32,000 bases of DNA, taken from NCBI RefSeq assembly GCF_000023965.1, contig NC_013202.1, positions 630,001 through 662,000 of the forward strand. The letters are read 5' to 3'. This document shows positions 9,781 through 32,000 of the stretch, piece by piece (within the stretch, counting starts at the first letter, position 1; each line of letters starts with the position of its first letter). Made by a program: the position numbers and the translations under genes. The notes beneath the pieces are model-generated. The model was not told where the DNA came from and searched no databases. It worked only from the letters and a program-made list of their open reading frames with translations. Source of the stretch: Halomicrobium mukohataei DSM 12286. Lineage in GTDB: Archaea; Halobacteriota; Halobacteria; Halobacteriales; Haloarculaceae.

Positions 9781-11086
9781 ACAAATACGTATGAGAGAAT
9801 TCGCTACCACCCGCCGTGAGATGATTCACAGCGGGTGCTCGTTGACTGGAGCCCTTCTCGGAACAGAAACTGTATCGTCTGCCCCGGGAGGCGATGAGTG
9901 GCAGGAGTTCGGTTTCGATACAGCTAACAGCGGTAACGGCCGGGAGAACCGAGGGCCGTCTACGGACATCGGAACCAGTTGGTCGTTCCAAACAGACGAC
10001 CAGATCACGTCGTCTCCCGCGGTCGTCGACGGGACCGTCTTCGTCGGCAGTCACGACGGAGCCCTCTACGCATTCGATGAGACAGACGGGACACTCGTTT
10101 GGCAGTTCGAAATGACCGAGCGCGTCCTCTCTTCGCCAGCCGTCGTCGACGGGACTGTCTTCGTCGGTAGCAACGGTCCAGACCGCGCCGTGTACGCCCT
10201 CGATACGGAGACGGGCGACGAGGTGTGGAACTACGAGGCGTCGAACTGGATTACAGCGTCGCCGACGGTGGTCGACGGTCACGTCTACGTCGTCGACGAC
10301 AACCAATGGGTGTACGCAATCGACGCTGCCGACGGATCGGAGCGATGGACCTTCGCCGGGACCGATTCGGTCCAACCACCACTCAAGACTGCCGGCGTGG
10401 CTGTCGCCAACGAGACGGTGTACTTCGGCAGTCGGGACAGCACCGTGTACGCACTCGACGCGAACGATGGAACAGAACGGTGGTCGTCGTCGACCGACGG
10501 TCAGATCGGGTCTCCGCCAGCCGTTGTAGATGGGTCGGTGTACGTGGGCAGCGACGACAATCACGTGTATGCCTTCGACGCCGAAGACGGACGTGAGCGC
10601 TGGCGATACGAAACCGGCTACTGGGTGGAAGCGTCACCTGCCGTCGTCGATGGAACGGTGTACGTCGGCAGCTTCGACGGAACGCTGTACGCCCTCTCGG
10701 CTGCCGACGGAACTGTCGAGTGGACGCGAAACGTCGGTGACGAGCTGGAATCGTCGCCGGCTGTGGTCGATGGCACGGTCTTCGTTGGCTCCGACGACAC
10801 GAAACTCCACGCGATTGACGCCGAGAACGGAACCCATCGCTGGGCGTTCCGAACCGGCGGACGCGTCGAGTCTTCCCCCGCAGTAGTAAACGAACGGGTC
10901 TATGTCGGAAGCAACGACGGAAACGTCTACGCGCTCAGTGGCGATGCACGGTCTGACTCGTCGATACCGGAACTGTCGATACGGAATCTGGGGATCGCTT
11001 CGGCCGCTGGCCTGCTCGGCGTGGGGTACCTCCTGCGTAGTCTAAAAACGGATACCGCTGAGACTGACACCAGCAACAGCGAGTAG
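9755..11086 (+). CDS. PQQ-like (BamB/YVTN-type) eight-bladed beta-propeller repeat protein, probably secreted and membrane-anchored
   Basis: Eight repeats of SSPAVVDGTVFVGSxDGxLYAxDxxDGxxxW. The N-terminus has a twin-arginine-like TTRREMI followed by SGC, a possible Tat lipobox. There is a C-terminal hydrophobic anchor GIASAAGLLGVGYLL. Alternative start at 9791. GC is lower than in the neighbouring genes. Confidence 0.85.
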   Translation: MGRQTKKSSQIRMREFATTRREMIHSGCSLTGALLGTETVSSAPGGDEWQEFGFDTANSGNGRENRGPSTDIGTSWSFQTDDQITSSPAVVDGTVFVGSHDGALYAFDETDGTLVWQFEMTERVLSSPAVVDGTVFVGSNGPDRAVYALDTETGDEVWNYEASNWITASPTVVDGHVYVVDDNQWVYAIDAADGSERWTFAGTDSVQPPLKTAGVAVANETVYFGSRDSTVYALDANDGTERWSSSTDGQIGSPPAVVDGSVYVGSDDNHVYAFDAEDGRERWRYETGYWVEASPAVVDGTVYVGSFDGTLYALSAADGTVEWTRNVGDELESSPAVVDGTVFVGSDDTKLHAIDAENGTHRWAFRTGGRVESSPAVVNERVYVGSNDGNVYALSGDARSDSSIPELSIRNLGIASAAGLLGVGYLLRSLKTDTAETDTSNSE

Positions 11087-11125
11087 ACAGAGATCGACGT
11101 CGTCGAAGCTTGCTGGCTGGACTAA

Positions 11126-11203
11126 TACTACCGGCTGTAAATCTGTCACAGATTTCGCCACCCCGGGGTGGCGAATATCTGAACGAAGTTACAGCCGGCA
11201 GTA
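11126..11203 (+). mobile_element. MITE copy A (78 bp), flanked by TAA/TAA direct repeats at 11123-11125 and 11204-11206
   Basis: The TIRs are TACTACCGGCTGTAA and TTACAGCCGGCAGTA, 14/15 complementary. Internal palindromes are AAATCTGTCACAGATTT and TTCGCCACCCCGGGGTGGCGAA. It is 76/78 identical to the copy at 29459-29536. Confidence 0.85.
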
Positions 11204-11217
11204 TAAATCAAGGGATA

Positions 11218-11401
11218 CCGATCATCAACGTCCGACAAACCGCCATTCTCGGAACGGGCGCGCTGAAAGAGCGGCCGGTCGCAGAGGACGGGGAGACGCG
11301 AGCACAGCGAGGGTCTCCGAACGGCGAGCGGGGACCACAGCGACCCGCGAGCGGCGAAGTCGTCGCGAGGGCGACCCTCCCGCTGTCGCTCGCGATCGAC
11401 C
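11218..11401 (+). pseudogene. 184-bp fragment duplicated from the 3' part of the E2 gene (matches 9203-9386), truncated on both sides
   Basis: Ungapped alignment at offset 2015. There are 7 mismatches in 9216-9229 and then 2 mismatches in 157 nt. It lacks the catalytic DHR motif and the whole N-terminal part of E2. Confidence 0.85.
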
Positions 11402-11514
11402 TCAGCACGACGAGTCAACATGCGCTGTCGGGCGAACTGGCAGTCGAGGACGCCCCGGCACCCGGCGACTGATCGACCCGAAGACATTCCTCGGTGACAC
11501 CCCACGGACCGACA

Positions 11515-28797: not shown

Positions 28798-28926
28798 CGC
28801 CGCGGTCGCCGACGGCAGCGTCCGTGTCGCGGGTGCGAGACGTGTCCGCCTCTCGTCACGTATGACGATCCCCCCAGAACGGTATTAAGAAGCTATAACA
28901 CCGCCTGTGGCGGGATTTTGGGTACG

Positions 28927-29877
28927 ATGATGTACTTCGAGGGAGCCGGACTCTTGATCGGTGCGATCGCACTCGGGGCGATCCACGGCATCGAGCCGGG
29001 ACACGGCTGGCCCGTGGCCGCCTCCTACGCCCTGGACCAGACGAACAAGTGGGCGTACGGCTTCGCCGCGAGCCTGATCCTCGGCGTCGGCCACCTCGTC
29101 AGCAGCATCGCGATGGTCGGCGCGTTCTTCTACGCCAAGGAGTATTTCAGCCTCACGCAGGTCAACGAGCCGATAACGGTGGTCGGCGGCCTCCAGATTG
29201 GCGGCCCCGTCAGTCTCGTGGCCGGCGTCCTGCTGATCGCGCTCGGGCTCCGAGAGTACCTGTCGGGCCACACGCACGGCACCAGTACCGGCCACGACCA
29301 CGGTCACACACACGGCACGGACGACGGCCACGGGGGGCATCACCACACGGGCACCGACGATCACGGGCACGGAGACGGCAGTCACGAGCACCACAGTGAA
29401 GCCGACGAGCACGCCCAGTCGCGCGAGCGAGCGGACCGCAGCCTCGTCGATCGACTGATACTACCGGCTGTAAATCTGTCACGGATTTCGCCACCCTGGG
29501 GTGGCGAATATCTGAACGAAGTTACAGCCGGCAGTATGAAGACGGTGGTGCCGTTCGTCGGCGGCGGGCACGCGCACGGAGAGATGGACACCGACCGTGG
29601 CCTCCTGGGAATCGCGTGGTTTGCGTTCGTCCTGGGGTTCGCACACGAAGAGGAGTTCGAGATCATCGCACTCTGTGCCGGTTCGGACGCGTGTCTCGAA
29701 CTCATGGGTGCGTACGCGCTGACGGTCGTCGTCGGCATCGTCGGGCTGACGATGCTGTTGATCGCGGGCTACGAGCGCTGTGAGGAGCGAGTCGAGCAGT
29801 ACACGCCGTATCTCCCCGTGTTCTCTGCACTGGTCCTCGTCGTCATGGGGATCGGATTCGTCACCGGCATCTTCTGA
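28927..29877 (+). CDS. NicO/RcnA-like nickel/cobalt transporter with His-rich loop, carrying an in-frame MITE insertion
   Basis: Family motif HGIEPGHGWP. The His-rich loop is GHTHGTSTGHDHGHTHGTDDGHGGHHHTGTDDHGHGDGSHEHH, followed by a second membrane half. A TATAA box at 28894-28898 favours ATG 28927; a TTG at 28918 is the alternative. The reading frame stays open through the MITE. Confidence 0.7.
   Translation: MMYFEGAGLLIGAIALGAIHGIEPGHGWPVAASYALDQTNKWAYGFAASLILGVGHLVSSIAMVGAFFYAKEYFSLTQVNEPITVVGGLQIGGPVSLVAGVLLIALGLREYLSGHTHGTSTGHDHGHTHGTDDGHGGHHHTGTDDHGHGDGSHEHHSEADEHAQSRERADRSLVDRLILPAVNLSRISPPWGGEYLNEVTAGSMKTVVPFVGGGHAHGEMDTDRGLLGIAWFAFVLGFAHEEEFEIIALCAGSDACLELMGAYALTVVVGIVGLTMLLIAGYERCEERVEQYTPYLPVFSALVLVVMGIGFVTGIF
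29459..29536 (+). mobile_element. MITE copy B (78 bp), flanked by TGA/TGA direct repeats at 29456-29458 and 29537-29539
   Basis: The TIRs and internal hairpins are the same as in copy A. It has 2 substitutions relative to copy A. It lies inside the NicO-like ORF. Confidence 0.9.
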
Positions 29878-31921: not shown

Positions 31922-31949
31922 GGGACGGGCTACGCCGCGGGGATGTTTA

Positions 31950-31962
31950 TACTGCCGGCTGT
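31950..31962 (-). mobile_element. solo MITE-type terminus TACTGCCGGCTGT preceded by TTA; either a relic or the end of a longer related element running off the window
   Basis: 13/13 match to the G-variant terminal inverted repeat, preceded by a TNA triplet (TTA, 31947-31949). The downstream sequence (CGGGCGCGAGCG...) does not match the MITE interior. Confidence 0.5.
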
Positions 31963-32000
31963 CGGGCGCGAGCGAGACACGACAGGCTCGGCGACGAGAG

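Follow-up and report, generated by a model that had tools for sequence, protein, structure and literature searches.

In-frame insertion of a 78-bp miniature inverted-repeat transposable element in a NicO/RcnA-like membrane protein gene of Halomicrobium mukohataei

Can a mobile element enter the coding sequence of an archaeal membrane protein and leave a gene that is still read as one? The question was raised by a locus of Halomicrobium mukohataei DSM 12286, in which a 78-bp transposable element of the miniature inverted-repeat type (MITE) lies within a gene for a NicO/RcnA-like membrane protein. The locus was analysed in a stretch of 32,000 nucleotides (contig NC_013202.1, positions 630,001 to 662,000 of the forward strand), which is called the window here and whose numbering is used unless another sequence is named. 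The host gene (28927–29877, plus strand) was characterized from the list of open reading frames (ORFs), Pfam matches, orthologues, hydropathy and AlphaFold2 (AF2) models. Its ORF was uninterrupted and encoded 316 amino acids from the ATG at 28927, as in the public annotation (P0001), or 319 amino acids from an alternative TTG at 28918. The P0001 sequence, annotated in H. mukohataei, was 100% identical to the product of this ORF and was annotated identically in three assemblies of the H. mukohataei group, and the H. katesii variant was composed of 325 amino acids. The window was identical to CP045142.1 over 13 kb of overlap. It is very probable that the MITE was inserted in frame into the NicO-like gene and tolerated in a loop of the protein, and that the gene is still under purifying selection.

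The insertion occupied positions 29456–29539, and the plus strand at the site read GAT CGA C(TGA) TACTACCGGCTGTAAATCTGTCACGGATTTCGCCACCCTGGGGTGGCGAATATCTGAACGAAGTTACAGCCGGCAGTA (TGA)AG ACG, where the parentheses enclose the two copies of the target. The element itself (29459–29536), delimited by repeat finding, folding, copy comparison and a family census, began with TACTACCGGCTGTA and ended with TACAGCCGGCAGTA. These ends were the left (29459–29472) and right (29523–29536) terminal inverted repeats of 14 bp, in which positions 1–14 of the element pair with positions 65–78, and they were found by the inverted-repeat search and in the copy alignment. A GC-rich stem was located at the centre, with the 5' arm TTCGCCACCC (29487–29496) paired with the 3' arm GGGTGGCGAA (29499–29508), and was recognized in the copy alignment. 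The repeat finder joined these parts into one inverted repeat, 29458–29496 and 29499–29537, with arms of 39 nt placed 2 nt apart. The single-strand fold of the 78-bp core had an energy of −46.6 kcal/mol (z = −6.7); dinucleotide shuffling gave no fold of equal stability in 200 trials. The terminal 14-mer occurred six times in the window, compared with 0.77 occurrences expected by chance. The element contained neither an ORF of its own nor a transposase gene. The left TGA duplication (29456–29458) was out of frame in the gene (C-TGA-T), and the right TGA (29537–29539), together with the last A of the element, formed the in-frame ATG of Met204. The 27 inserted codons (29458–29538, plus strand; Ile178–Met204, ILPAVNLSRISPPWGGEYLNEVTAGSM) were placed between a conserved R-L and a conserved K of the orthologue alignments. 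The tryptic peptides predicted to span the junctions were LILPAVNLSR on the left side and ISPPWGGEYLNEVTAGSMK on the right side.

The empty site was preserved in three insert-free congeners (L127, L129 and L130), each of which carried GAT CGA CTG AAG ACG with a single TGA. The gene order was the same in all three, with a helicase gene, CGI-121, the NicO-like gene, and adenylosuccinate synthase on the opposite strand. The occupied site and the empty site with its single TGA together prove a transposition with a 3-bp target duplication. An earlier note on this DNA, made from the letters alone, had proposed that a MITE lies in frame in a NicO/RcnA-like gene, within the region of the His-rich loop, and this proposal was borne out by the empty sites, by 118 orthologues and by the family census. 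The extent that it gave, 29456–29539, proved to be duplication, element and duplication, and the core of 78 bp plus one TGA amounted to 81 bp, or 27 codons, as it had said. Excision of 29459–29539 left CGA CTG AAG ACG, exactly what the three insert-free congeners carry. The ORF list agreed with its continuous 319-codon frame without a stop in the inserted part, and translation confirmed that three of the six frames of the window element are open. The note had also expected the 27 residues to be missing from related orthologues, which was the case; the outcome that it had named as refuting, the same segment in orthologues of distant taxa, did not occur.

The segment ILPAVNLSRISPPWGGEYLNEVTAGSM, flanked by the invariant R-L and K, was absent from 12 of 12 orthologues, including the three Halomicrobium congeners at 92–95% identity. 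In an alignment of 119 sequences, the 27 insert columns were empty in all 118 homologues, which came from many genera. The continuous ORF, and nothing else, speaks for the alternative of an ancestral origin, in which the protein always had the 27 residues and other lineages have lost them. This alternative was refuted by those 118 orthologues and by the precise empty site of the congeners. In addition, the corresponding DNA ends in terminal inverted repeats and is flanked by a target duplication. It shares 97% identity with copy B, which is intergenic and located 18 kb away in the window, and more than 100 copies of it occur in other genomes. The probability left for an ancestral segment is negligible.

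Both the H. mukohataei group and H. katesii carried the insertion, which Halomicrobium sp. LC1Hm, KBTZ05 and a related metagenome-assembled genome (MAG) lacked. The H. katesii sequence shared 97.1% DNA identity with the window, and its copy of the element differed by one base, a T-to-C change at the first position of the element that replaces Ile178 with threonine and is the single change in the 81 nt of inserted codons. Synonymous divergence was 0.046 between the two insert-bearing lineages and 0.11–0.16 from these to the insert-free ones. The presence of the insert in two lineages and its absence from their sisters, together with these divergences, bracket the age of the event.

Judged from its sequence, the host protein is a divergent member of the NicO superfamily, in a haloarchaeal clade with the motif HGIEPGHG. 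The label "NicO/RcnA-like" appears to be a fair description of its architecture. Like NicO/RcnA transporters, it has NicO-like helices in the N-terminal part and a His-rich loop between three-helix bundles, but it falls below the curated cut-offs of both families. The match to Pfam NicO (PF03824) scored 26.2 bits against a cut-off of 27.7 and covered the N-terminal half only, and the match to NCBIfam RcnA (PRK10019) scored 33 bits against a cut-off of 195 bits. Among the 119 orthologues, 113 matched NicO at E ≤ 1e-3, the best at 4e-8. Hydropathy and AF2 gave a layout of three hydrophobic segments, a hydrophilic His-rich loop of about 110 residues and three further helices, with helical residues at 5–20, 28–36, 42–73, 94–113, 223–249, 254–284 and 286–315. 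Three membrane helices were thus predicted on the N-terminal side of residue 113 and three on the C-terminal side of residue 223, and two membrane-helix bundles separated by a His-rich loop, as in NicO and RcnA proteins, were found in these low-confidence models. The model built from 119 sequences had a mean predicted local distance difference test (pLDDT) score of 57, with 60–79 in the helices, and serves for the positions of helices and loop only; the model built from 13 sequences (pLDDT 45) was uninformative.

The loop (residues 114–222) was rich in His, Asp and Gly, had AF2 pLDDT values of 35–48, a range that also covered residues 141–227, and was predicted to be disordered. The insert forms residues 178–204 of it, where the variable part of the loop meets the conserved motif R-L-K-x-x-V-P-F-V-G-G-H-x-H. 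The His/Asp/Gly-rich part (window 29270–29400) contained in-frame indels of six and three codons relative to H. katesii. Further differences in loop length were seen in other congeners, and the length of the His-rich loop is evolutionarily plastic. Because the loop already varied in length between species and strains, it was a plausible place for 27 extra residues.

The selection acting on the gene since the insertion was estimated between the window gene and its H. katesii counterpart. The two genes differed by 10.5 synonymous and 8.5 non-synonymous changes, which gave a ratio of non-synonymous to synonymous substitution rates (dN/dS) of 0.26; insert-free pairs gave 0.22–0.52. The synonymous excess relative to neutrality in the insert-bearing lineages was significant (P = 0.002–0.008). 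When the two sides of the insert were taken separately, the ratio of the proportions of non-synonymous and synonymous differences (pN/pS) was about 0.21 upstream and about 0.26 downstream. The window gene and that of H. katesii differed in length only by two in-frame indels, of 18 bp and of 9 bp, both within the His-rich repeats. A ratio of about 0.26 on both sides and indels that all keep the frame argue against a decaying pseudogene, and comparison of the sequences suggests that the gene is probably still functional after the insertion. The earlier note had allowed that the gene might be dead at this point, which the same ratio makes unlikely.

A young pseudogene, inactivated by the insertion or already dispensable and as yet without an obvious disabling mutation, was nevertheless considered. 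Two features favour it, namely the separation of the conserved R-L from K-x-x-V-P-F-V-G-G by the insert and the small number of substitutions, 19 in all. However, evolution of all 951 sites at the synonymous rate (dS 0.046) would be expected to give about 44 changes in place of those 19. The synonymous excess between the insert-bearing lineages is significant, pN/pS is similar on both sides and resembles that of insert-free pairs, both indels are multiples of three, and four assemblies as well as H. katesii carry an intact ORF. Loss of the gene is therefore an unlikely explanation.

The preferred reading is that of a tolerated insertion. The 78-bp non-autonomous element inserted at an out-of-frame TGA triplet of the NicO/RcnA-like gene in an ancestor shared by the H. 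mukohataei group and H. katesii, once their lineage had split from Halomicrobium sp. LC1Hm and KBTZ05. Duplication of the 3-bp target brought the addition to 81 bp, or 27 codons, free of stops in the frame entered. The 27 residues would be tolerated in the His-rich, predicted-disordered loop of about 110 residues between the third and fourth membrane helices, and the gene, which is under continuing purifying selection, would still be translated as one polypeptide. The protein would thus be made with the insert and still work. The element was presumably mobilized in trans by a TNA-duplicating transposase, and the copy may have survived as nearly neutral, disruptive intragenic copies having been purged.

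Several points weigh against this reading. The selection test compares two lineages that are separated by the 19 substitutions. The insert splits the conserved R-L|K motif beside the conserved VPFVGG-H-H segment and could impair function, so that some functional cost at this motif may exist. Translation through an mRNA hairpin of −46.6 kcal/mol and membrane insertion of the product are predictions, and the AF2 models were weak (mean pLDDT 45 and 57). Furthermore, the census described below sampled copies with near-perfect termini, and degraded intragenic copies may have been missed. Finally, a search of about 1.2 Mb of locus DNA yielded no partner transposase.

To scan for the family, a pattern built from both termini was run against a single genome of each species, which gave at least 120 stretches and 124 copies among the matches listed; the counts given below for copies, stop codons and open frames refer to these matches. 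The length was exactly 78 bp in 102 of the 124 copies. Matching TNA duplications flanked 106 of the 124 (TCA 51, TGA 38, TAA 11 and TTA 6), and one further copy had a matching non-TNA triplet (AGC). The terminal 14 bp were nearly invariant in 92 distinct copies; since the scan pattern fixed positions 6–14 and 65–77, only positions 1–5 and 78 give independent evidence of conservation. Copies were found in Halovenus, Halomicrobium katesii, Natrarchaeobius, Halostagnicola, Halapricum, Haloarcula, Natronomonas, Haloplanus and Salinirussus, as well as in many Halobacteriales MAGs. A blastn search of plasmids gave 35 places on nine plasmids of Halomicrobium, Haloarcula and Haloplanus. When diverged copies were aligned, the termini, the central stem and the TNA duplications were retained, and the sub-terminal arms were asymmetric and paired loosely or poorly. 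The family is therefore a genuine MITE, widespread in haloarchaea and present in several haloarchaeal families. No copies were found in the viral contigs searched, and an Rfam search with the element gave no match.

Within the central stem, both partners of a base pair had changed together in many copies. Pair 35/44 was AT in 59 copies and GC in 21, pair 30/49 was TA in 76 and GC in 10, and pair 29/50 was TA in 78 and CG in 8. These double-sided compensatory changes across genera in the 10-bp stem (positions 29–38/41–50) suggest selection on the hairpin, which would act at the DNA or RNA level.

The second copy in the window, copy B (11123–11206, element 11126–11203), had a TAA duplication on both sides and was identical to the NicO copy at 76 of 78 positions. 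It was located between a PQQ beta-propeller gene, which ends at 11086, and an apparent gene remnant for a 2-oxoacid dehydrogenase E2. A protein annotated there as "2-oxo acid dehydrogenase subunit E2" (P0168, 120 amino acids; window 11110–11472) starts upstream of copy B, and about 30 of the residues near its start are encoded by the MITE. The rest matched only positions 160–204 of the 232-position profile of the E2 catalytic domain. P0168 has the appearance of a gene remnant whose N-terminus comes from the MITE. Two intergenic sequences, at 752–826 and 31949–32000, had TACTGCCGGC... termini (TGTC variant), and the former also contained a central GC hairpin (GTCGCCGCC...GGCGGCGA). Both appear to be relatives of the same superfamily that have degenerated or diverged.

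The position of the copies relative to genes was examined next. As haloarchaeal DNA yields many spurious ORFs, a gene was accepted when a stop-free span was accompanied by the codon-position GC signature (GC content of about 0.8 or more at third positions and about 0.55 or less at second positions). Of 126 copies, only the window copy and one other (L060) had this signature on both flanks with one frame running through the element, and L060 was the same NicO-like gene in H. katesii. Among about 108 independent copies, and likewise among 109 copies with duplications, only the NicO insertion was truly intragenic. Computational excision of every copy restored an ORF with a coding signature at only two other loci, and both were rejected: at L026 an aminotransferase gene starts about 12 codons downstream of the element, and at L012 the ORF was Arg-rich junk. 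On 100 kb of annotated plasmid, five of five copies were intergenic and two of them start one base past the end of a coding sequence (CDS). Plasmid matches that were first listed as lying under CDSs abut the CDS ends at the stop codon and cause no interruption.

Stop codons were a frequent target. In the analysis of loci L007–L126 and L131–L132, the target of 26 of 107 copies with intact duplications (24%) was the TGA or TAA stop codon of a convincing coding ORF, whereas only 2.4% of the TNA triplets of that DNA as a whole were such codons. Insertion at a stop codon regenerates the stop and leaves the protein unchanged. The excess may reflect a preference for the target or the survival of harmless insertions. 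An ORF of 309 amino acids in the Halobacteriales MAG QS_5_68_33 (L042, 4383–5312, minus strand) ended in ...ELEILPAVTS, with C-terminal residues that run into one of the MITE copies. A number of small "hypothetical proteins" on public record (P0121–P0167) were ORF calls across MITE copies as well.

The earlier note had likened the insertion to Rickettsia palindromic elements (RPEs). According to a 2024 review (PMC10969869), RPEs (Ogata et al. 2000, 2002) are about 100–150 bp long, and roughly half of the copies of some families lie inside genes. As in RPEs, a short palindromic repeat lies in frame in a functional gene, adds a peptide, keeps the ORF and occupies a position that is likely to be compatible with the fold. 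The present family differs in its length of 78 bp, its canonical terminal repeats, its TNA duplication and its archaeal host, and it has one intragenic copy in about 108. The likeness therefore holds for this single in-frame event and fails for the family.

A family adapted, like RPEs, to in-frame life in coding genes, of which the NicO insertion would be one of many, was suggested by four properties. Element and duplication add up to a multiple of three, 81 bp; the exact 78 bp is kept in 102 of 124 copies; half of the six frames of the window copy are open; and the palindrome, read in either orientation, gives similar peptides (LPAV...TAGS). However, open frames numbered 2.4 per copy compared with 2.0 in shuffled copies, a small excess, and copies were concentrated at stop codons and in intergenic spacers, with a single independent intragenic case. 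Coding selection cannot explain the fixed length, since it occurs in copies that are nearly all intergenic. When protein databases were searched with the MITE peptides, all matches were ORFs that were short or of junk composition and had no Pfam domain; these searches carry little weight, as they are biased against long host proteins and a 76-column concatenated profile missed even P0001. An exhaustive search of 50%-identity representatives, a set that under-represents insert-bearing variants by design, gave 33 proteins, of which the longer ones were Arg/Ser/Pro-rich junk ORFs without a Pfam domain. This explanation is thus already largely refuted and very improbable. Because element and duplication always add 81 bp, every insertion keeps the downstream frame, and about 40–50% of the combinations of frame and orientation are free of stops; an occasional tolerated intragenic copy is therefore expected without special adaptation. 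The family therefore behaves as an ordinary intergenic MITE, unlike RPEs, and the NicO copy is a rare survivor.

An effect on expression was also considered. The AT-rich motif GCGAATATC could serve as a promoter (TFB recognition element and TATA box) for a leaderless transcript that starts at Met204 and encodes the C-terminal three-helix half, beside the full-length protein. In the element, AATATC was located at 29507–29512 and the in-frame junction ATG at 29536–29538, and GCGAATATC lay about 27 nt upstream of this ATG, a spacing that would fit archaeal TATA-to-start distances. On the other hand, copies showed no bias of orientation relative to the adjacent gene (10 versus 10), and the upstream half of the host gene was as constrained as the downstream half, as expected of a single protein. 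Such a promoter role is accordingly very improbable.

Tourist-like MITEs are mobilized by PIF/Harbinger or IS5-family (IS1031-type) transposases, which make 3-bp TNA or TWA duplications. The present family resembles them in its 3-bp TNA duplication, short terminal repeats and small size, and differs in that no autonomous partner with matching ends was found for it. From the TNA duplication, the transposase is presumably of the IS5 family (IS1031-type) or PIF/Harbinger-like, and this superfamily assignment is only a lead. When paired termini at a spacing like that of insertion sequences were searched in all loci, the two best candidates contained no transposase. No transposase-bearing element with these termini was present in 100 kb of the annotated LC1Hm plasmid, a search with the variant terminus TGTC gave no pairs, and a paper on the IS5 group contained nothing on TNA duplications.

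Beyond the window, a tandem repeat was observed at L001 13086–13291, which starts 12 bases past the window end. It was composed of a minus-strand tRNA-Gly(CCC) followed by 2.7 tandem units of 55 bp with 97% matches, and each unit starts with the terminal bases of the tRNA (ACCAACGGCGC). These units resemble repeated attachment-site duplications of integrative elements.

The same 2024 review describes in-frame fusions by intragenic MITEs as "not unusual" among bacteria, RPEs being the extreme, and its list of archaeal MITEs contains no such in-frame case (PMC10969869). Bacterial families such as ERIC, Correia/NEMIS and BOX are similar to the present one in that an intergenic family has a rare in-gene copy that gives a translational fusion (PMC10969869). 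The present case differs from these in its archaeal host and in the comparative evidence of selection on the host gene after the insertion. Among described haloarchaeal elements, MITEHsal1–14 of Halobacterium (PMC7002104) and HqIRS of Haloquadratum (PMC3119063) are non-autonomous with terminal repeats, and examples among them are about 400–520 bp long, have duplications of 5–7 bp and disrupt the genes that they hit, such as that of DmsA by MITEHsal3. The present family differs from them in its 78 bp, its TNA duplication and its occurrence in many genera. In a 2024 census, 88.9% of archaeal MITEs were intergenic, and the richest genomes were an unclassified Haloarculaceae MAG and a Halovenus genome (PMC11602168). 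MAGs of the same groups dominate the copies among the matches listed in the present scan; because of this agreement, the family is probably included in the bulk catalogue of that census (PMC11602168), without an individual description. No archaeal in-frame intragenic MITE was found in the searchable literature. The NicO insertion thus adds a new and well-documented case to a kind of event that is already known, and may be the first clear case in archaea.

A more far-reaching, and unlikely, possibility is that the MITE segment of 27 residues was exapted as a working part of a regulatory or metal-binding loop and was kept by selection through speciation. A related reading, equally tentative, is that the hairpin maintained by compensatory changes and the ten-fold enrichment at stop codons reflect a host-level role at the 3' ends of genes that goes beyond parasitism under tolerance. 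If exaptation were true, this would be the first documented archaeal MITE to give coding sequence to a functional protein. The 78-bp TNA-duplicating family, with copies at stop codons, is useful for annotation, as it accounts for the MITE-encoded termini of several "hypothetical proteins" on public record and of the "2-oxo acid dehydrogenase E2" entry in the window. The NicO locus is also suited to experiment, as it offers exact bounds, natural insert-free sister alleles, an age sufficient to show constraint and a simple presumed phenotype, tolerance to nickel and cobalt. Mobile elements that survive in frame are one route to new protein segments, a route that is well documented in Rickettsia and in a few other bacteria.

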